DNA of 63,858 nucleotides, counting the filler, from Squatina squatina (lineage: Eukaryota): assembly GCA_031763465.1 (NCBI GenBank). It is 4 parts of 4 records of this genome, joined end to end, with 100 filler letters (N's around TTAATTAATTAA, not from the genome) between each part and the next. Parts side by side here need not be neighbours in the genome. Positions count along the whole stretch, not along the records: positions 1 to 15,589 come from JARFOE010000192.1; 3 more parts are not named here. One strand, given 5' to 3'. The first letter of the stretch is position 1, and each line of letters opens with the position of its first letter. The translations under genes and the position numbers were made by a program. The notes under the pieces are model-generated. The model worked only from the letters and a program-made list of their open reading frames with translations, made no database searches and was not told the origin of the DNA. Of the stretch, positions 3,199 through 51,805 are shown piece after piece.

Positions 3199-3663
3199 GT
3201 AAGACGCGTCCTAAAAGATTTTAAATGTCCTCTTTTTAAAAATACGTATTTAAAGCTACTCCTCTGTTATTCATAGTGCACCTCCAAAGGTTATGATCAC
3301 ATGTATATCTTCTAATTTTCAAGACTTTCCACATTTTCACTAAATGACATGATAATGTGTGTTAAGTATGACACAGCGCAACTGCCTGTCGGGAGTGAAT
3401 GCAAAAATACTCAAACTACAAGTGCCACATACAAGCAGTCTCCCAAGAGAAATACTTCTTGTATTTGGCTTTAAACAATAAATTATTCTATTTTGCATAA
3501 TAGAAATAAATATGTAGTCATATACTTTGGCTTATGTGGTAGGATTATGACAATTGCAGGATATGCTGAGGCGTGATTACAGAATGGCATTCTGCTTGAA
3601 TTATTAATTAGTCCCTGATCTTGATTATTTTTGTTTTGAATAACTTTTTTTGTGTCTTCTAAG

Positions 3664-3804
3664 GATGGCTCAATCTACCATGTCCAGACACAGAAGTGTC
3701 TGCAAGCCATACCTAATGCATTCAGTAATGGTCGTCCAGGACCATTACTACGACCATGTACTGATACCGACCACCAGAAATGGTTCTTTCAAGAAAGAAG
3801 ATGA
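3664..3804 (+). CDS. GALNT12: GALNT12 last coding exon, to stop codon
   Basis: AAG acceptor after a T-rich tract. Encodes DGSIYHVQTQKCLQAIPNAFSNGRPGPLLRPCTDTDHQKWFFQERR then TGA (3802-3804). Matches the GALNT12 C-terminus PLLRDCTNSDHQKWFFKER. Confidence 0.92.
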   Translation, partial: DGSIYHVQTQKCLQAIPNAFSNGRPGPLLRPCTDTDHQKWFFQERR

Positions 3805-3976: not shown

Positions 3977-5153
3977 GGATGGGCTTCAAGCTCTGCATGA
4001 AGTCCTGAGCCAAGTTGGTGCTAGATTTCTCCATGCTCCTTGACACTGAATGTGGGCTTTCTGGCAAGCTTGCCAATGCACCAAGCATTTTGTTGTGTAC
4101 ACCAATCAGTCTTCATCTGTAGCCTGGTCCATCGAAGCCCTGATCTGAGTCCTCTGCAGCAGAACTCGTGTGCGAGCTAACACCTGTGCTATCCTCGCCT
4201 CCTGCCCTGGCTGCAGCACACTTGTGCCCGATGTCTCACCATGTGCACATCCGCCTCTATGCCATTCTCTAAGATAAGTGCAGTATCAGTTTTTTGAGCT
4301 GGTGGCTGCCAGTGTGAAATCAAATGACAGTGTATCTTCACCATCACTGTCTTCTTGGTCTTCCTCTACTTCCTGGGCAGGTTGCAATTCTTGAGTATCT
4401 GAAAGGAAAAAGGGACAAGGGTAAGGTTGTGATGGGGCAGGGAGCAGTGGGGTGGGGGCGGTGGGAGGGAAGTAAGAAGTCAATGCTTACAACATCTGCA
4501 GCTTGTAAGTCAGGAGAGATTGTGAGATGAACGGCAAGTGGGATATGAGAAAGAGGATTAGGTGTGAGGATACTATCACCTTCAGTTGATTCTGCCCCAC
4601 TGCTGGCTATGGCCTCAGCAGTGGCCCTTTCCATAATGGCCAGCACTGGCTCCTCCATGGGGGTTGGAACATAGAGGTGCGCCTCTCACGCTGTGGTCAG
4701 TTCCTGCTGCCTCCGGTTGTGCATCACCTTCTCTTGCAAGAGAGAGTAAAGTGTGTCAGTGAGTGCTGTGCAATATGTTTGGGTGATGTGGCTGCTATTG
4801 TTGAATAGCTAGCAGTGTATGCAAGCTGTGAAATGTGGGTGTAAGGCTTGCAACAGTACTACATGTGTGAGGTTAAGGTAAGACATAAGAATGTTACGTA
4901 TGATTCCTGATTGAAAGAGATTGTTGGTAGATGAGTGATGGGGGTGTAGTGAATTGAGCAGTGGCTGAGGCTAGTGGTACAGTTGGTAGGATATGACACT
5001 TGAAGATGGATTCACTGACCTTGACTACTTGTGTGAGGTTATTAAACTTCTTGCGGCATTGCATCCAGGTCCTTGGGGATAAACTCCTGGCATTGACATC
5101 CATGGATATCTGTCCCTTCTCATTGTGTGACTGGAGGGCCTCCTGCCCTTGGG
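3977..5153 (-). mobile_element. Degenerate PIF/Harbinger element, intron-containing Myb/SANT DNA-binding gene
   Basis: Minus-strand peptide ...VNARSLSPRTWMQCRKKFNNLTQVVK followed by a GTCAGT donor (5019-5014), then EKVMHNRRQQ.../PMEEPVLAIM and acidic segments with stops. The RT(W)xQCRKK motif is typical of Harbinger Myb/SANT proteins. Confidence 0.75.
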
Positions 5154-12249: not shown

Positions 12250-13157
12250 CACCCCAATCAGCTTTCCTCTCTACTAACCCCGGAGGTTGAGTTCAATGCG
12301 GTTGAAGCCGAATGTCTGATTTGCTCTGCGTCTGTGTGTAACCTGTGTGCTAACTGCCGCCAACAACATGCCCCGAGTGTGAATAATATCAAACCACAAG
12401 CCCAGATCGCCGAGCGGACTCGCTCCTGAAAGCCCAGACTGGACCACGGCGGCTGTCATCTGCAGTCCCCACTCTGACATTCTTTGAAGAAGCTGACTCT
12501 GGCGATGAAGGACAAGATTTTTTCGCCACTTTGGCTGTCTCTCCAGGGACCCCGTTCTTCAAATCCCTCTCTGCCTGTGTAAGATTTGTTTTTTGGCGGG
12601 GAGGGGGCATTTCCCTGTTATCTATCCTCGTGTTTCAATGGATTGGACAGGATGTGATGGGCGCTGTCGATGAAAGGAGAGGCTAAGTGCTGAGATCTTT
12701 CCCATATTAACACCCAGACCAACACTCTCTGGATGATCGGCGTTGCTCTGCCAGATCTTTCATACTCGCGTGGTGTAGGTTCCCTCCTTTGAACTGCTGC
12801 CGAAATCCTTCTAAAGGAGGTGAAGAAGGCGATATATATATGTGTATATTTATGTATATTTATATTTTTATATACGTGTGTGTATATATACATAAATATA
12901 GTATACTTATTAAGAGAGGGGGCGCCAATCGCCGTTGAAAGACATTGTTCGGGACCCCTCAATAAGAGAAAGGAATGCACTGAACTCGGCTCAGCTCAGT
13001 TCCTGGACCACATCGCAGTACCTTTAGGACGTGTTACGAGAGCCCATCTCGGGAGAGAGCGAGGTAGATAGCGAGCGAGCGACAGCTCCAATGCCAGCCT
13101 TCTGATCCCACGTCTCCATCGGTCGAGCTGTGTGTGTGTGTGTTTTTTCTCCTACAG
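12250..13157 (+). promoter_or_regulatory. CpG-enriched promoter/5' region of the first GABBR2-like unit
   Basis: Higher CpG and GC density immediately upstream of the ATG-bearing exon, with no TE similarity noticed. Contains an AT-rich simple repeat at about 12830-12905. Confidence 0.5.
12505..12578 (+). CDS. Candidate upstream start exon of GABBR2-like unit A (coding part)
   Basis: ATG at 12505 opens MKDKIFSPLWLSLQGPRSSNPSLP+GT up to a GTAAGA donor at 12579. A phase-2 join to the acceptor at 13158 is in frame with the downstream ATG. The exon could equally be 5' UTR, or the frame match a coincidence. Confidence 0.3.
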
Positions 13158-13158
13158 G

Positions 13159-13479
13159 ATGGATCCAGCCCTCAGGACCTACCGATCTGGGCTATTCGCT
13201 TCGGTCTTTTGGCGTTCTCTGGGCCGGCTTGGGACGCTGTTGTTGCTGTGGGGCTGGGGCTGGGGTCCCGACTCGGCTCTGGGACTCAGGAACACCGCCA
13301 TCAGGCTGGATGCCGACTCCAAGCTGCCCATCATGGGGCTGATGCCCATCAACAAGACGCTGGCGGTGGAGAGCATCTCAGAGGGCATCTTGCCTGCCGT
13401 CCAACTGGCCACAGAACACGTCCACAACAGATTCCTCCCAAACACCAGCAAACTGGTCCTGGAGTGGTACGACTCCGAG
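13159..13479 (+). CDS. GABBR2: GABA-B receptor subunit 2-like N-terminal exon A: signal peptide and start of the Venus flytrap domain
   Basis: Encodes MDPALR...LGTLLLLWGWGWGP...KLPIMGLMPINKTLAVESISEGILPAVQLATEHVHNRFLPNTSKLVLEWYDSE, then donor GTATTT (phase 0). Aligns without gaps to remembered human [53 protein letters not shown], about half identical. Strong acceptor TTTTTTCTCCTACAG ends at 13157. GALNT12 and GABBR2 are neighbours on human 9q22.33. Confidence 0.85.
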
Positions 13480-13866
13480 GTATTTGGCACAGTTCTTTTA
13501 TTTATGAAGCTGTGGTTTTATCGCTACCTTTTTTTTCCCCCCAATCTGTTTACAAATGAACATGTAGAGGATTCCAAATGATTTATAATGTTGCCTTTTT
13601 AATACATATGTACATATTCCTCTTTAATATCTCCACACAATGACACGGTGCCAAGTATTAATTTTGAATTGTGGTATTTTGTACAATGCGCAGTGTATGA
13701 ATGATTTAACCCTTCACTGGGATCAGGAGGGATTTGCTGTGACTGTGTCTTGTGGAGTGATTTCGGGTTTTACATTTATTGACCCAGTTTGTCTGTGGAG
13801 CGTGTGTGAGCATGTGGAAAACACTGATCAACACCTGAGCAATAAATGAGAGCAATGGGAATTAGG

Positions 13867-13890
13867 GTGTGTGTGTGTGTGTGTGTGTGT
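13867..13890 (+). repeat. (GT)12 microsatellite
   Basis: Read directly. Confidence 0.95.
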
Positions 13891-14643
13891 CTTCCCTGTA
13901 ACAAAAATGAACGAGCTCCCGAAGCCATTGCATTAACAGTTAACAGCCGCCCGACAAGTGCTGGGAATCTGTTCCCTGCAGGGTGAACGGTTCCAGCAGT
14001 GAACGGGCAGAGCGATGGAGCAGAGACCTGCTCACTGATCACAAGCCGACAGAGCCAGCCAGCCAGCCGCAAACAGTTAACATTGCAGGTCTCCGCTCTG
14101 CCTCTCCCTCTCTCTCACCAGGAGATGTGGGGCAGAGGTGACAACTTAACACGTTTCATGTGAAAAATATTCATAATCACCTCGAGATCTTGTTGAAATT
14201 GTGCTTTTTTAAAAAAAAAAATGCCTTTAACTGAGGAATCGCATAGGGTAGCTTCATTTCCCAGATTTTCTTTTGTTGGCTTGTTTTTAATTTCCATTTT
14301 TTTGTATTATATGTGTATTTGTTTGTCACNNNNNNNNNNNNNNNNNNNNNNNNNNNNNNNNNNNNNNNNNNNNNNNNNNNNNNNNNNNNNNNNNNNNNNN
14401 NNNNNNNNNNNNNNNNNNNNNNNNNNNNNATGGTGTCACCTGTGAAACTGCACCGAGGAGAGAAAACTGGTCTGTAAAAAGAACTGTCCGTTGATAGTTC
14501 TTATTCAATCAATCACTGTGGTTTGCGCAGACAAAGACAGAATGCATGATTCATGCCGAAATGCTGGGCTGTAATAAAACATTGTATTTTTGTCTGCTTC
14601 AAAGTTTCGATGACTTTCTCATAGCAGAACCTTAGCAGGCATA

Positions 14644-14669
14644 ATGAGAGCCAGAGGGAACATCATGAG
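14644..14669 (+). CDS. Candidate start micro-exon of GABBR2-like unit B (coding part)
   Basis: Two in-frame ATGs (14644, 14665), both with A at -3, give MRARGNIM+AG followed by donor GTCAGT at 14670. A phase-2 join to CAG acceptors at 15114 or 15177 is in frame with exon B, which has no ATG of its own. Confidence 0.45.
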
Positions 14670-15114
14670 GTCAGTACCAGAGGGACTGAAATTCAGATTC
14701 GAGGTATTATATTGAAAATAATGAGGAAGTTTTATACCCAAGAAGCCAAAGCTTATTTAAAAACAAAACAATTCAATCAAAGCTTCCAAGATTTTTTTAC
14801 TACCTATTTAAAATAAAACCCTTAATAATTGCTGTCTATGTAGCAATATCAGATTTAGTTGGAATTGCTTGTAGTGAGATTCAATATTGAAATTAATTTA
14901 AAGGCAAATATATACAATAATATGATTACGATGGGATTGGATTGTGAATGATCAGTGCCTGTTACTGAGAGTGCTATAAGTAGCCCAGAGTACAGATCTC
15001 TTTGGGAGAGATGGGATTTATTGAGCAGGTTTGATGTGCAGATTACAGTAATCTGCAGAGCACAGCTCTTTATCCCTTATGACATTCTGACTGATTCCCC
15101 GAGGGACTAACCAG

Positions 15115-15403
15115 GTCCCTGGAACACGCAGAAAAACGAGGAGCGAACAAACTGCTAAGCAGGGCAATTTGGGACAGGTGGTGTGTGCCGATTCTTGGGG
15201 TCTTCTCTCTGCTTGTTCTCAGAGCCTTGGGAGAGCTGAAGAACATTACGATCTTGGGGCTTTTGCCTGTGACTCACACTTCAGGATCCACCAACTTCAC
15301 AGCAGCAGTTCTACCTGCTATCAATTTAGGGTTGGCCTCTGTAAATAAACATCCATTTATACTTGAGGAATATAATCTCCACGTGGTAATAGAAGATACT
15401 CAG
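15115..15403 (+). CDS. Second, more divergent GABA-B receptor subunit 2-like N-terminal exon B (5' boundary uncertain: 15115 or 15178)
   Basis: Open frame ...WCVPILGVFSLLVLRALG-ELKNITILGLLPVTHTSGSTNFTAAVLPAINLGLASVNKHPFILEEYNLHVVIEDTQ, then donor GTAATG at 15404 (phase 0, same position as exon A). Has a signal-peptide-like core plus the IxGLxP...LPAxxL...DT[EQ] pattern of GABA-B flytrap N-termini. Confidence 0.75.
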
Positions 15404-15589
15404 GTAATGTTTCATTAAGATATATTTTCACGTGGATATGACCTGTGTTAAATATTCACTCAAGTGTTACAAAGCTCTGGTTAACATTGATAAAACTTGC
15501 CGAATTCCACTTGAACAGCTGTTATGTAGCTTCTCTGTTAATTATCTACAAAAGTCTATTTTTCGAAGTCTGATAAATGCATCTTTTGA

Positions 15590-15689
15590 NNNNNNNNNNN
15601 NNNNNNNNNNNNNNNNNNNNNNNNNNNNNNNNNTTAATTAATTAANNNNNNNNNNNNNNNNNNNNNNNNNNNNNNNNNNNNNNNNNNNN
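15590..15689. other. Artificial scaffold spacer N44-TTAATTAATTAA-N44
   Basis: Palindromic 12-mer with stops in all six frames at 15634-15645, centred in Ns. Identical structure at 30408-30507 and 49098-49197. Confidence 0.97.
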
Positions 15690-19699: not shown

Positions 19700-19890
19700 A
19701 AATAGCTTAGGTGCTTTCAAAAGGAATTTAGACGAGTACATGACAGGAAAGGGAATAGAAAGATATGCTGAAAGGCTGAGATAAGGCAGATGGTATCGGA
19801 GGAGACCATCACAGTATAAACTGATGGAGTATAAACACCAGCACAGACTAGTTGGGCCAAATTACCTGTTTCTGTGCTGTATATTCTATG
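19700..19890 (+). mobile_element. CR1-type LINE 3' tail
   Basis: GAFKRNLDEYM-type ORF end followed by a ...GGGCCAAATTACCTGTTTCTGTGCTGTATATTCTATG tail. Confidence 0.7.
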
Positions 19891-19899
19891 TGATTGATG

Positions 19900-20500
19900 A
19901 TGAAGCATTTGCAGGAGGATGGGGTGATAGGAGTGTTGGCAGGGGTTATTGAGGGAGATGAATAGCTGTACTTATCCTTTCTGCTCTTGAGGTCATTGAT
20001 CCTCTTCCTACATTCAACCCAAGTCCTTGGAGTGATGCTCCTGGAACTGATTCTGTCAGCCACCTCTATCCAGTCTTGCTGGATATTAGTCCTAGTATCT
20101 GCCTGCAAGTGCTGGGAGCACTATTTCCCTTCTTGCCCTGACCTCCTCCACCAGGACCTCCATGGAGACATTGGAAAACCTGGGTTCAGAGCTCCAACTC
20201 ATAAGTGGTACCAGAACTATACCCACACTTCCAATGAAACCTCAAAGCAGGGAATGCAACCTTGCTTAAAGAGCGCAACCTTGCTTTAAACAGAGTCAGG
20301 ACTTGCGTTGGAAATTGTGCGCATGACATGGGCGGGCTAACAGAATTGTCACGCGATCGGAAGGCCAGTCTGTCAACCTTATTAAGATGAGTCCCGAGAA
20401 TTAAAATGGGCCGGGTCTGATGCCAAAAATATCATGAGAGCTTGGTGCCTGGGTCAACCTCCCTCTCTCCACATGCACAATCTGCACCCCAAGTTAAACA
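19900..20500 (-). mobile_element. Decayed Harbinger Myb/SANT gene fragment
   Basis: Minus strand reads FSNVSMEVLVEEVRARREIV, then after a frameshift QQDWIEVADRISSRSITPRTWVECRKRINDL. Confidence 0.75.
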
Positions 20501-41359: not shown

Positions 41360-43356
41360 GTAAATAGTTCCTGAACACTGTGCTCGGGTGGGATCAGAGG
41401 AGAGTAGAGGGAATATGGGGAGCATTCAGGGAGAACATTTTGAGGGCTATTGTGCTACTGCATGTAAGTAAAGTTTTAAGTCTATTGTAGTTCTTGGTTT
41501 TACATGTGCAGCTTGATAAATCACCTGTTAAACACCACCAAGTTGATAAAATGAGATGTCATAGGTAGGGATTTTTTTCTCAAGTACTGTCTTTCATATC
41601 TCCACATAGGCCAGTTTTTCAATTTGTGTAAACCTTTATGCTTGTACGTATCGGCAGCCTTGACTAAGATGGAGACGAAATGGAGAGCAGCTTTGTACCC
41701 AGTGTTCATGATCTTTTCACCGTTTATACTGTGGGGTGTATTCAACAATGATAACTGCATGTGTGTAAGGTTCACACAAGCACAGGTTCTCCAAGTCATT
41801 GAGAGTTTGAAATAATTGCAAATGCATTAAGTTGTGCAGTTAGTACTGCCGTGTCTATTCTTGGGAGATCTGTGGGGCCACTAATGTCAAAAGTGCAATG
41901 GTTGGTTCAGAACTCTCTCCATTTGTAACTAGATCTTTAAGTGGCAGGGCTAACCCAAGTGCTGAAGCAGCGATTTACATTTGTCACCATTGGAACCCAG
42001 CAGTCAGAAACATTGGAGAAATCCTACCCAAGCTGAGTCTTGGTGGCTTCAATGGCACAGAGGTTGTTTTGTTTAAATATTTGCCTCCAGTGCTCTCGTT
42101 GGCTGAGGCAGTCGTATAAGTTAATGAGGTTTAAGAGAACAGCATTGGCAGAGCCTTGAGTGCATGTTGCCTGCCATCTTGGTCTGATTATGGTGAGAGT
42201 CCAAGGGAACCGTAAAAAGAGCTGGGANNNNNNNNNNNNNNNNNNNNNNNNNNNNNNNNNNNNNNNNNNNNNNNNNNNNNNNNNNNNNNNNNNNNNNNNN
42301 NNNNNNNNNNNNNNNNNNNNNNNNNNNTACAAAAGTGAGCTGGTCAGTTTCCTGACCTGGAACTGCTGCTGCCTTTGTAAACGTCTTTCAAAAATTAACA
42401 CACAAGTTTCAAGTACTATTGAATAAGATGGTGAGGCAATATATACACAGAGTTCCTACTGAATAATTGTTGCCTGCATTGTGGTGAGGGACGCAACCCT
42501 TGCAGCATGTCTGGGCCATGGTTGTTTTACTGTCCAACGTTTTTAGCGGACAAACCGCATTAACCTCGTGCCCACTATAAGCGGTGCAGACTGTAGCATG
42601 TTTAGCGCACATTTCCTGTCCATCACACTCCTCTTTTGCACTCATTTCTGTTGCATTTGATGCCTAAATACCTGCATTCTTAATTAACCTCTATGAATTT
42701 ACCCGGTAACCAATTAGACTGTACATCATTAAAGTCACACACTTCAATATTTATGCAAAATATACAAAACAGTGCATCATCCGACTGAGTATTGCCATGG
42801 GCGATTTGTTTATCTTTTTTAAACAAAGCATTACTGGGATCCCAGAGAATATTTACCTTTAGCTCGAGATCCAGACATAGGGCAATAGATGCAACAACAC
42901 AATGCAAGGTTTTGTTTAATTATGAATGGTTAATGAAGTTAAATCTCTTAATAGAAAAAGATTACAGGAAAATGCAATTCAACAAGTAAATGAAGTTGTT
43001 ATGGAGGATTATAGAAAGATATTAAACAAATTCAGGAGTGAGAGGACATTATAAATTTAAGAAACTATAAGTTAAGGGCTGCTGACTAGTGGGCTGGACT
43101 TTTTTCTAAATTACAGCATTGGACATTTTTCTCTGCTGAAGATGCTGTATAAATGCAAGTTGTTGAGACCTTGCGCTGCACCAGTTGCTAACTGAGATGT
43201 GATATTCAAAAAGATGTCCATCCTTGATTCAGCATGAGAGGAAGGCTGGGTAGGGGTAACAAACGATTGAGAAGGGGTCCATGTTGAGGGTTGGATGACT
43301 GCAGGGTTATTCAAGCCCGATCTTTGTTACTGACATTCAGTTCTTTGCCTTTCCAG

Positions 43357-45168
43357 GAAACGAGGCTGGGGAAGCTCATCAACGATGTACGGAAGAAAAC
43401 CAAGAATGAGGAGCTTGCGAAGCGTGCCAAGAAACTGCTGCGGAGCTGGCAAAAGTTGCTGGTCGAGCCAGTCGGCCAGATTGAGTCTGTGCCCAGAGCG
43501 CTACCCAACTCCCCCGGCTCAGCCAATGGTGGAGCTCATGCCTACAAGCATGACTTGCCGTCTCTGGCCACCAGCACTGCAACAGGGGGAGCCAAGCCAG
43601 TACCAGATCTGAAAAGCAAGAATGACGTGCATAACTCCTACTCTCTGCTTGCTGACAAGCAGGGCAATCGGAAGCGGAAAGGGGAACACCGGGATGGCAT
43701 GAAGGGTCCACCATCCAAAGTTCCAAAGGTCAATAATGAACAGNNNNNNNNNNNNNNNNNNNNNNNNNNNNNNNNNNNNNNNNNNNNNNNNNNNNNNNNN
43801 NNNNNNNNNNNNNNNNNNNNNNNNNNNNNNNNNNNNNNNNNNNNNNNNNNNNNNNNNNNNNNNNNNNNNNNNNNNNNNNNNNNNNNNNNNNNNNNNNNNN
43901 NNNNNNNNNNNNNNNNNNNNNNNNNNNNNNNNNNNNNNNNNNNNNNNNNNNNNNNNNNNNNNNNNNNNNNNNNNNNNNNNNCTATTCTGCAGCAGCATGG
44001 AAAGACGGATGATTGTGGGGGGCGTTATCGACCCAGTAGCCCCCGCTGTCAATCATTTAGCCCGAGGACTTTTAAACAAGAGATGTTGGGGAAACCCTCC
44101 ACGACATATGCACCCAAAGGCTCTGTATCTAGCCCATCCCAGAGCTTTACAGGAACATCTGCTCAAGCAGGTTCTGATTCCGATAGGACAACGTCCCACT
44201 TACCCAAGAACAATATTCAGGTGCCATCCCCTGTGCCTGTATTGCAGCTAGCCACGACACCACCTCTGCCACCCCAGGCAAAAGGCTTGCACCCGCCAGG
44301 GACCGAAAGCCCCTTAGATCGGCTAGGACACACACCTGGTTTAGAAACCCTTGGTGAAAACCAATTGCAGCACCATTCTGCGCCAACACTACAGCAGCAG
44401 GACTCACCGTACCCCTCGCACAGCCCCAATTCATCAACTTCACATCGCAGGGAATCCTTGCACAGTCATGAGTTGGAAGCAGCGATGGGAGAGTTGTCCT
44501 CCAATGAGTGTGCCTCTTTTGGTTATGATGGCAAAAAGTCATCCAAGAAAAAATACAGGTCTAGAGACTATCNNNNNNNNNNNNNNNNNNNNNNNNNNNN
44601 NNNNNNNNNNNNNNNNNNNNNNNNNNNNNNNNNNNNNNNNNNNNNNNNNNNNNNNNNNNNNNNNNNNNNNNNNNNNNNCCACAAGGATTCATCTCAGGCT
44701 GAAAGCCCGGTTCCACCTGAGCCCCATCGAACCACCGAAATTGTACAGGAACAGAGGGTAAACTTGCAAAGTACTTTAGATCAAACAAACTGGAAGGAGT
44801 TATCCAAAAATGAAATTATTCAGTCATACTTATCGAGACAGAGCTGCCTTCTTTCATCCTCGGGAGTGCAGCCACCAGGAGGTCACATTGTTGAGTTTCT
44901 ACAGCATGAAAGCCACAGGTATAGCACTAGCACAGAGGCCCGCGAGGTCCACGTATTAGTACCTACCGACTCTCCCTCAGAACTTCCTGGAGTCAGTAGG
45001 GAGATCAAAGACTCGGACGTTCACCGTATACACCAACAACACTGGGCAGGTGTAAACGGTTGCTTGGACAACCATGGCAAATGGTATGATTGGACGCAGG
45101 GCATATCTTTGGACCCTCATGGTGATCAGGGACAATTGCACATACTGCCGTACGTCTGTCTAGACTGA
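43357..45168 (+). CDS. MED26: MED26 (Mediator subunit 26) large terminal exon with two internal gaps
   Basis: Acceptor TTTGCCTTTCCAG ends at 43356. Encodes ETRLGKLINDVRKKTKNEELAKRAKKLLRSWQKL ... NWKELSKNEIIQSYLSRQS ... WYDWTQGISLDPHGDQGQLHILPYVCLD*. Confidence 0.97.
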   Translation, partial: ETRLGKLINDVRKKTKNEELAKRAKKLLRSWQKLLVEPVGQIESVPRALPNSPGSANGGAHAYKHDLPSLATSTATGGAKPVPDLKSKNDVHNSYSLLADKQGNRKRKGEHRDGMKGPPSKVPKVNNEQXXXXXXXXXXXXXXXXXXXXXXXXXXXXXXXXXXXXXXXXXXXXXXXXXXXXXXXXXXXXXXXXXXXXXXXXXXXXXXXXILQQHGKTDDCGGRYRPSSPRCQSFSPRTFKQEMLGKPSTTYAPKGSVSSPSQSFTGTSAQAGSDSDRTTSHLPKNNIQVPSPVPVLQLATTPPLPPQAKGLHPPGTESPLDRLGHTPGLETLGENQLQHHSAPTLQQQDSPYPSHSPNSSTSHRRESLHSHELEAAMGELSSNECASFGYDGKKSSKKKYRSRDYXXXXXXXXXXXXXXXXXXXXXXXXXXXXXXXXXXXXHKDSSQAESPVPPEPHRTTEIVQEQRVNLQSTLDQTNWKELSKNEIIQSYLSRQSCLLSSSGVQPPGGHIVEFLQHESHRYSTSTEAREVHVLVPTDSPSELPGVSREIKDSDVHRIHQQHWAGVNGCLDNHGKWYDWTQGISLDPHGDQGQLHILPYVCLD

Positions 45169-47510: not shown

Positions 47511-47878
47511 TATTATTCTCAATCTCTGTTGCCAACGCCATTTCACGTGCAGATATTGAGAAATATGTTTGTTGTCAACTCAGCCACTCATTGACTTTTT
47601 GTTTCGTCCACTTATGCAAACCCCTCTGCCCCTTTAGAGCTGAGATGCTTCAGTCTGCGTGGAATGTATTCACTTGATGTTGTATGTGTGTGCGTGGTGA
47701 GAGATTGGCACCAGATACGCTCAGGACGTGGATATTTCTCACAGTAGTTAGTTTGATGGACTGTTGTACTGCGACGTGAGTAAAGATTGCTGTAAAGAGC
47801 CTGATCGCCATATAGTGGCTCAGGTGAACAGTAGGATTCCATTGATTCTAACTCCCCTCCCTTTGTTTCTCTCCCTAG

Positions 47879-47949
47879 TCAAGGCCACTATGCCTATTTG
47901 GGTGGTCCTTTTGTCCCGTATCATCATGAAGGAGAAGCAGACTATGAAG
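47879..47949 (+). CDS. SLC35E1: SLC35E1 exon 2 (71 nt), triose-phosphate/nucleotide-sugar transporter family
   Basis: TTTCTCTCCCTAG acceptor and GTACGT donor. Encodes (V)KATMPIWVVLLSRIIMKEKQTMK. Confidence 0.93.
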
Positions 47950-48865
47950 GTACGTGGGTCTGAGATTCATAGGGATGAGGGTTTGTTTTGTAACAAACTA
48001 GATTATAGAAATTTATTTTTTCCAGCTCACTCCCAGGCAGCATCCATATCATCCAAGGAAAGCTAAAGGCTAAAAGTTGGAACAAAATAAGTTGGATGTC
48101 CTGCTTTCAATTGTAAATTATATTCTAAATAAAAATTACTAATCTGGATGAGGGTGTTGAATTTTATTTCTTCTTAAAACTTCTTTTGTGGTAATTTTGT
48201 GGGTGTGCTTTGCCCACAAGCTCTGTCTCCTCTCTCCCCTTTCAAAATCTGTGCTGCTCTCAGTGAGAAGAGCAGTTGAGCTCTCCATCTCTGGTGATGC
48301 TACCAGTGTGACTGGCTCAAGCGTGTATCAGTGTTAGAGGAAGGGAGGTGTCCTGTGCCAGAACATCCTGGGGCGCCCACGGGGAGTCCCAGTGATTGCC
48401 ACCATATCCTCTCCCGATGCTGCAGCCAACACAAAGAAAACCTTTACAGCTCCTAGAAGACTGGCTTAGTTGGTACAAATACCTGTGGGAAACAGGCACT
48501 GCTTCAATAGATGAATGGTATCGCAAGAAGCACAGCTTGTCATCCACTCTAAACACATCGAGCCTAGTCATTTTGATAATTGGAGTCAACTTGCTCATTA
48601 TAATCATTCTTTATGAATTCAAAACTTTAAAAGGAAGTAGGGTAAAAATAGAAAACAGTGTCTTAGATTTAGAAGAGTAGGTAGTAAGCAGGGGAGGAAT
48701 TGTTGTTTTCTAAGACTACACTGTCTGTACAACACTTTCAGTATTTGAAACCAAAGAATAGTTGACCCAAATCTCAATGGAGATTAATTGATTAATAAAT
48801 AAAGACTGGTGTATTTAGATAGTACCTTCCATCGTTTCCTAACTGTTGAATTCGCTTCCTGCCAG

Positions 48866-49097: not shown

Positions 49098-49197
49098 NNN
49101 NNNNNNNNNNNNNNNNNNNNNNNNNNNNNNNNNNNNNNNNNTTAATTAATTAANNNNNNNNNNNNNNNNNNNNNNNNNNNNNNNNNNNNNNNNNNNN
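49098..49197. other. Artificial scaffold spacer N44-TTAATTAATTAA-N44
   Basis: 12-mer at 49142-49153. Confidence 0.97.
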
Positions 49198-49511: not shown

Positions 49512-49724
<213 letters not shown>

Positions 49725-50556
49725 CTAGAAAAATAAGATATACATTTTTTTTCCCCTCCAAAGAGTCATTGCATGCCAAGTCACTTGCACCCCAAAATAG
49801 AATAAATAATCCATGCACACGCCATTTAAACACAATCGGTAGGTTTACCGATCTTCTGTATTATTCTCTCCTGTAAAATACATCAGATAAGACATTCCAT
49901 GCAGCGATCTGGAAATTCAAACTTCTGAAGTTTTGGAAACTGCTTACACTTACAACAGAATACTGGGCCTGATCAGAAATTGTGTCACTGATTCACTTGC
50001 TTGTCAACAAACTGTCATTTGTGGGTAATATGCTTGAATGATTGGTCTATCACACAAATAAAAGTGTCAATTGTTAGCAAGCATCCCATTTCTGCACCAC
50101 ATTGTTGAATAAAAAGCTCAGTGGTGCCAGTCTCCCTGTTCTCAAAACACTAATAAGCAGTGCCTTCCAATCCTAGAAATAGTGTATGTAATGTTCCATC
50201 ATAATTTGAGTTATAGAAGTTAATTTTTCTGCTAGTTTTCTAGGTGGATCCACTTACTAAGTGTGTGTGAATACTTGCTACATTCACGGTTAGGGAAAAC
50301 AAAATGCAAGTGGCCAGAAAGGTTAATNNNNNNNNNNNNNNNNNNNNNNNNNNNNNNNNNNNNNNNNNNNNNNNNNNNNNNNNNNNNNNNNNNNNNNNNN
50401 NNNNNNNNNNNNNNNNNNNNNNNNNNNACAATATGCTTCTCATAGATAAGTGACACGCTATGCAACCCTCCTTATACTATATTGTGCTCTTGCTAAATAT
50501 TATTGCAAAACATCTAAACAATGACAGCCAGCACTACTAGCAACACAACTACCTTA

Positions 50557-51805
<1,249 letters not shown>

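Follow-up and report, generated by a model that had tools for sequence, protein, structure and literature searches.

For GABA-B receptors, N-terminal isoforms have been described for the GABBR1 gene, from which GABA-B1a and GABA-B1b arise by alternative transcription starts (PMC13242166). The two forms differ in that two sushi domains are present or absent before an unchanged flytrap (PMC7411975). In the covered parts of two reviews, the diversity of GABA-B receptors is attributed to GABA-B1a/1b and to accessory proteins, with one GABA-B2 ectodomain (PMC13242166, PMC7411975), and the covered parts of these two and of a third review (PMC3920572) describe no alternative N-terminal GABA-B2 ectodomain. 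In the literature searched, mostly without subscription journals, no description of an alternative GABA-B2 N-terminal isoform was found; a term search gave no isoform passage in the searchable part of a lamprey cloning paper (PMC5143684), and a preprint on the evolution of the GABA system does not mention sharks in its main part (10.64898/2026.09.08.749565). A different route to N-terminal isoforms is given by N-terminal substitutions derived from tandem exon duplication, in which homologous 5' coding exons are used from alternative promoters; in the sections covered, KCNAB1 is an example of this class, and the clustered protocadherins and UGT1A are multi-copy cases (PMC8373072).

The window analysed here is the whole stretch of 63,858 nucleotides from Squatina squatina (assembly GCA_031763465.1). 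A reading of this DNA made earlier from the sequence alone had reported two exons, A and B, each opening a GABA-B2-like protein and each ending in a phase-0 GT donor at the homologous residue; both exons, both donors, the sequons named for them (NKT and NTS in A, NIT and NFT in B) and the 100-N gap between them were found again (Table 1). Exons A and B are very probably two homologous first coding exons of the single gene GABBR2. It is likely that sharks, lizards and birds make two versions of the outer domain of the receptor, with one annotated in human, since public models join either start to the same receptor body. The B isoform is already present in automated annotations under X-numbers, which lowers the surprise of the finding, and is apparently undescribed.

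Table 1. Features of the GABBR2 first exons and of the artificial joins, with positions in the window
Feature	Positions	Strand	Detail
Polypyrimidine tract and AG acceptor, one base 5' of the ATG	13130..13157	+	...TTTTTTCTCCTACAG/GATG
Exon A, canonical GABBR2 coding exon 1	13158..13479	+	ATG 13159; coding 13159-13479
Phase-0 GT donor of exon A	13480..13481	+	ends ...WYDSE; A-type models join exon 2 (CDNAKG...)
100-N scaffold spacer between exon A piece and exon B piece	14330..14429	.	sequence
TATAAG, candidate promoter element about 185 bases upstream of the B start	14975..14980	+	consensus match only
Start-codon position of exon B	15161..15163	+	AGG in the window; A at -3, G at +4
Exon B, very probably an alternative GABBR2 first coding exon that arose by duplication	15161..15403	+	81 codons
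67-base core of exon B, no listed difference in four relatives' runs	15255..15321	+	run comparison
N-F-T-A motif, N-glycosylation sequon, just 5' of the first helix	15293..15304	+	invariant in B-type sequences
Phase-0 GT donor of exon B	15404..15405	+	ends ...IEDTQ; B-type models run on DTQ/CDNAKG, same exon 2
Artificial join ending the GABBR2 scaffold	15590..15689	.	linker N44-TTAATTAATTAA-N44
Stop-codon linkers N44-TTAATTAATTAA-N44 (stops in all frames)	15590-15689, 30408-30507, 49098-49197	.	sequence

The window consists of 43 short pieces with a median of 1237 bases and is not continuous DNA. The joins are mostly 100-N spacers, and three are stop-codon linkers. Because the window is built of spacer-joined pieces, the distance of 1.7 kb between A and B is a scaffolding artefact. 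The contig of a relative extends upstream of 14434 with letters that are absent from the window, and the piece carrying exon B is the last one before the stop-codon linker. By tblastn and by a profile search of 2719 translated segments, no further exon of GABBR2 or of another GABA-B gene was identified in the window. The fragmentation, the last place of the B piece and the lack of any other GABA-B exon suggest that the order A then B is probably a product of reference-guided scaffolding. Gene distances and some exon orders in the window are thus artificial, a point to be considered for every finding from this record.

Several other coding segments were identified in the window. Exons of a polypeptide GalNAc-transferase lie at 394-795, 1768-2007 and 3640-3801 (+), not in coding order, with domain evidence from PF00535 at 1768 and from a weak ricin-type lectin fragment (PF00652) at 3640; a ricin-type lectin is the usual C-terminal domain of these enzymes. 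In human, GALNT12 adjoins GABBR2. One linker-bounded block contains TRIC/TMEM38 (30843-31226, -), MED26 (43288-45168, +) and an exon of the TPT family, SLC35E-like (47752-48063, +), genes which adjoin one another in human as well. Two exons of a MAP-kinase-type protein kinase are found at 49512-51189 (-), and these resemble MAPK6/MAPK4. Transposon remnants are represented by a reverse-transcriptase fragment (PF00078, 46828-47181, +) and by Myb/SANT-like fragments at 19851-20120 (-), a weak match to PF13837, and at 4897-5151 (-), recognized by eye only.

Exon A codes for a signal peptide followed by the first strand, the helix and the second strand of flytrap lobe 1. In a search with exon A, all seven matches were named GABBR2, with 73-92% identity over 100% of the query; the best was from Pristiophorus japonicus (92%), and Scyliorhinus GABBR2 was 90% identical. 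The PDB matches were to GABA-B2 exclusively. Judged by these matches, exon A is the usual GABBR2 coding exon 1 of cartilaginous fishes. The sequon NTS is kept in 8/8 chondrichthyan A sequences, and NKT is not conserved. The models of catshark and elephant shark reach a few residues upstream of the exon A ATG, and these extensions end in Arg. A leader exon of phase 2 probably precedes exon A in sharks, since it would fit both the strong acceptor in front of the ATG and the Arg-ending extensions.

Exon B codes for a signal peptide of about 25 residues, followed by a strand-helix-strand segment of the flytrap. Its most hydrophobic 9-mer is ILGVFSLLV. The sequon NFT is kept in 15/15 B sequences, and NIT is not conserved. 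AlphaFold models gave a mean pLDDT of 30.0 for P0033 and 44.6 for P0060, values which are too low, so that the models were set aside as evidence; in P0060 the B segment is drawn with a strand at 29-34, a helix at 47-64 and a strand at 73-78, mostly below 50 pLDDT.

At its start position, exon B carries AGG in the window, with surrounding bases that are favourable for a start codon, and the frame from 15095 to 15415 is without any Met. Relatives carry an ATG at this position in run X6 (a loose end) and a Met in the zebra-shark model. The chance that the AGG is a base error or a rare allele is just short of even, a recent real loss of the start is a serious possibility, and translation from another start is unlikely. 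An alternative reading of B as an internal exon, entered in phase 2 from a pyrimidine tract and the AG at 15221-15222, was rejected, since relatives show Met or ATG at 15161; the three changes within 15206-15222 were two synonymous and one L-to-F. As a separate observation, the DNA for the hydrophobic signal core of B (15200-15222) also reads as a pyrimidine tract with CAG in phase 2. This CAG is possibly a cryptic acceptor, use of which would remove the signal peptide of B.

Five relatives' runs each contained the piece with exon B as a single collinear contig. In four of these runs, 15170-15437 contains no stop and no indel, and pN/pS for exon B was 0.57, 0.45, 0.40 and 0.49. The variable sites avoid a central core of 67 bases (Table 1), and when the 27 variable sites were placed at random 100000 times, an invariant gap of this size arose just 14 times. 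Outside the core the constraint is modest, since the divergence of B is about that of its flanks (in run X1, 16 of 198 exon bases differ from the window, compared with 86 of 1125 bases in the complete piece). Of six changes found in the window only, four are synonymous (p 0.04), which suggests that exon B was under selection until recently.

These data bear on the alternative that B is a conserved copy of exon 1 which is dying or not translated, and that the B isoforms are annotation artefacts copied between species. The AGG at the B start in the window would fit such a copy, as would the pN/pS of 0.40-0.57 together with a divergence near that of the flanks, and B is missing from 27 of 28 named chondrichthyan models. 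However, the open frame, the signal peptide, an M-x-x-W start, the sequon and the phase-0 donor are retained from sharks to birds, and a dead exon would not keep such features over this time; the same intact exon is carried by unannotated genomic contigs, and only 3 of the 27 variable sites fall on second codon positions (p 0.008). A dying copy is therefore quite improbable, and B as an alternative first coding exon is the preferred reading.

The mature parts of A and B share 13 of 53 residues (25%), and their alignment score was reached by none of 5000 shuffles. Taken with the two phase-0 donors at the homologous residue, A and B are, by comparison of sequence and splice phase, homologous exons. 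A search of the PDB with the single sequence of exon B gave GABA-B2 of the fly as best match (E 0.1), with NPR-A at E 1.2 only. When a profile of B sequences was used, GABA-B2 chains were found at E 1e-6 to 7e-6, followed by GABA-B1 at 5e-3 to 1e-2, and at E<=1 the matches were 8 GABA-B2 and 7 GABA-B1 sequences and nothing else. An assignment of B to the flytraps of natriuretic-peptide receptors or guanylyl cyclases, which the sequence-only reading had named as the result that would speak against it, was rejected, as these families are absent from the profile matches. The resemblance of B to invertebrate GABA-B subunits, which the sequence-only reading had put forward, is real in the profile search (fly GABA-B2, E 1e-6) and weak for B alone (E 0.1). 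Drosophila GABA-B2 (PDB 9jqx_B), the best match of B in the structural library, shares with it the end H..IL..Y.L...DTQ; however, it has T-G-R-G-V, as in the A type, where B has N-x-T-A.

No Pfam family was found in exon A or B. A search of the Atlas returned small unnamed clusters only, one of them with ANF_receptor on 10% of its members, which serves as a lead only. With B alone, a word-indexed protein search gave none among 223 candidates. A full HMMER search with B gave 8 matches, five of which were unnamed single-exon open reading frames of 44-75% identity, ending in D[TS]Q at the donor; P0011, P0015 and P0016 were repeat-rich, spurious matches and were excluded before alignments and counts. 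An intact B exon is thus also present in unannotated genomic contigs (P0010, P0012-P0014, P0017).

For the age of the two exons, a maximum likelihood tree was calculated from the 54 columns of the mature segment in 24 sequences. Shark and lizard A sequences were grouped together, as were shark, lizard and bird B sequences, with UFBoot values of 99 for the A/B split and 93 for the B clade. In agreement with this, the identity is 46% between shark B and lizard B, 28% between shark B and lizard A, and 42% between shark A and lizard A. The N, T and A of the N-x-T-A motif are invariant in 15/15 B sequences, and the motif is absent from 9/9 A sequences. Of 18 B-type proteins checked, 17 open with M-x-x-W, placed 32-35 residues ahead of the first motif that is conserved. 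Since the motif and the start are common to the B sequences, a single exon duplication that predates the divergence of cartilaginous from bony vertebrates is the best reading of these sequences, although not a proven one. A switch that is real but has two origins, one in cartilaginous fishes and the other on the line to reptiles and birds, is very unlikely. It draws on an AU test over the 54 columns, in which a topology uniting all shark sequences of both types was not rejected (delta lnL 6.2, p-AU 0.167), and on the HMMER and B-profile searches, in which no named B-type protein of an amphibian, a coelacanth or a ray-finned fish was found. Against two origins, shark and sauropsid B share the N-x-T-A motif, the M-x-x-W start, the leader length and an insertion of one residue relative to A, and the maximum likelihood tree favours a single origin.

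What follows the two starts was obtained from public gene models. In Stegostoma tigrinum (zebra shark), GABBR2 isoform X3 (XP_048376906.1) opens with an orthologue of B, identical at 58 of 81 residues, and runs on into the normal exon 2 (CDNAKG...). Its body is identical to that of the A-type isoform X1 in the RefSeq models (839/839 residues), and from its residue 29 onward the whole protein aligns with human GABA-B2 (E 0); in the clustered database this B-type isoform sat in a cluster represented by an A-type protein. For Anolis carolinensis, the bodies of the gene models X1 (A) and X2 (B) are likewise identical (834/834). In both species the A and B isoforms carry the same gene name and are listed on a contig of the same size (163,087,018 in the zebra shark, 256,973,922 in the green anole). 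A profile of 7 B sequences identified 6 more proteins among 8000 candidates scored, four of them full-length B-type GABBR2 proteins from Zonotrichia albicollis, Otus sunia, Anolis sagrei and Anolis carolinensis, and cluster members added B-type GABBR2 of Corvus, Phaenicophaeus and Tinamus. Among 39 fetched proteins with an exon-2 start, a sample shaped by the searches made, A opens 25, B opens 10, and other leaders open 4; the 10 B-type models represent the zebra shark, anoles (two species) and birds (five taxa), and in named chondrichthyan models with an exon-2 start B was found in only 1 of 28. All joins of B to exon 2 are those of computer-made gene models.

Of the two explanations that the sequence-only reading had offered, alternative first coding exons feeding one receptor body are supported by the identical bodies in zebra shark and green anole, and a tandem second gene of the GABA-B2 type found no support, as no second body was seen in the window or behind any of the 10 B-type models. 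The feature that this reading had placed in sharks is wider, as it is seen in models of lizards and birds too. A second, tandem gene of the GABA-B2 type, with B as its first exon and a separate body, is extremely unlikely. Such a gene would fit the low identity of A and B (25% over the mature residues), the fragmentation of the window, in which the sequence behind B cannot be followed, and the slightly closer resemblance of B alone to fly than to human GABA-B2. However, all 10 B-type models with a body enter the ordinary GABBR2 exon 2, B-type and A-type bodies are the same in two species, none of the 2719 translated window segments holds another GABA-B exon, and the word-indexed, HMMER and B-profile searches contained no separate B-type receptor.

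Two further observations were made on the gene models. In Zonotrichia albicollis and Anolis sagrei (P0061, P0066), it is the RefSeq isoform labelled X1 that opens with exon B. The models of bamboo and zebra shark (P0033, P0036, P0030) differ by an insert of 8 residues in the region of the second extracellular loop, giving bodies of 839 and 831 residues; this insert represents a second small splice choice.

For two homologous first exons of one GABBR2 gene, the choice of B would be made by a second promoter in the first intron. Such a promoter is probable, since B has its own start position, a signal peptide and an upstream TATAAG, and it would act as in the N-terminal class of duplicated exons (PMC8373072); a choice between promoters is suggested by the lack of a phase-0 acceptor that would let B follow A. 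Use of B would exchange the signal peptide together with the opening strand-helix-strand of the GABA-B2 flytrap and leave the rest unchanged; the secondary structure of the exchanged lobe 1 segment is presumed from the human structures. Exon 2 onward, with the membrane domain and the C-terminal tail, would be common to both isoforms, so that both should pair with GABA-B1 and couple to the G protein.

In GABA-B1b, Trp65 is required for ligand binding, according to the parts covered of PMC7411975 and PMC12499500. The Asn of the B sequon adjoins the position of this Trp65, as read without gaps from the end points of alignments and not from a structure. The cleft of GABA-B2 is described, in the part of PMC7411975 covered, as having no known ligand, and it is held to raise agonist affinity and efficacy. 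The predicted N-glycan of the B isoform would be positioned at the rim of this empty cleft. There it would alter surface partners, trafficking or the potency of agonists, and it would not make a new ligand site. Glycan wedge scanning was reportedly described by Rondard et al. in 2008. At the level of a guess, B may be an isoform restricted to certain tissues, with changes in its trafficking, partners or potency. The wider scenario, in which an ancestral promoter switch of jawed vertebrates gave two GABA-B2 flytraps and hence two GABA-B heterodimers, with the B glycan, retained from sharks to birds, at the mouth of the cleft producing a tissue-specific receptor of different GABA potency or different extracellular partners, and in which this switch was lost in mammals, is put forward tentatively and is doubtful as a whole.

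A natural second version of part of the flytrap in sharks, lizards and birds offers a ready-made swap test for the role of the GABA-B2 flytrap. Work on GABA-B receptors of songbirds or reptiles may unknowingly use the non-mammalian form, since several bird and lizard reference models open with B. The loss in mammals that had been proposed from the sequence is consistent, for human only, with one catalogue of duplicated human exons, in the covered part of which no GABBR gene was found while positive controls were (PMC8373072).

In comparison with the described systems, the models show ordinary GABA-B2, the class C GPCR encoded by GABBR2, in exon A and in all that follows B. The difference to the known GABA-B2 is that the first approximately 54 mature residues of lobe 1 are present in two versions, which are 25-30% identical to each other. 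Drosophila GABA-B2 is a whole single subunit, whereas B is an alternative exon. The arrangement of A and B resembles the N-terminal class of tandem exon duplications in that homologous exons precede the same downstream exons in gene models. In contrast to the human cases of that class in the covered part of the catalogue (PMC8373072), A and B are found in sharks, lizards and birds and seemingly are absent from human annotation. With GABA-B1a/1b, the locus has in common that N-terminal isoforms are provided for a GABA-B subunit. A switch of the GABA-B1a/1b type was rejected for A and B, because they are homologues, each of which provides the beginning of the flytrap. Unlike GABA-B1a and GABA-B1b, A and B replace a part of the flytrap itself by a homologous duplicate, and they do so in the other subunit.
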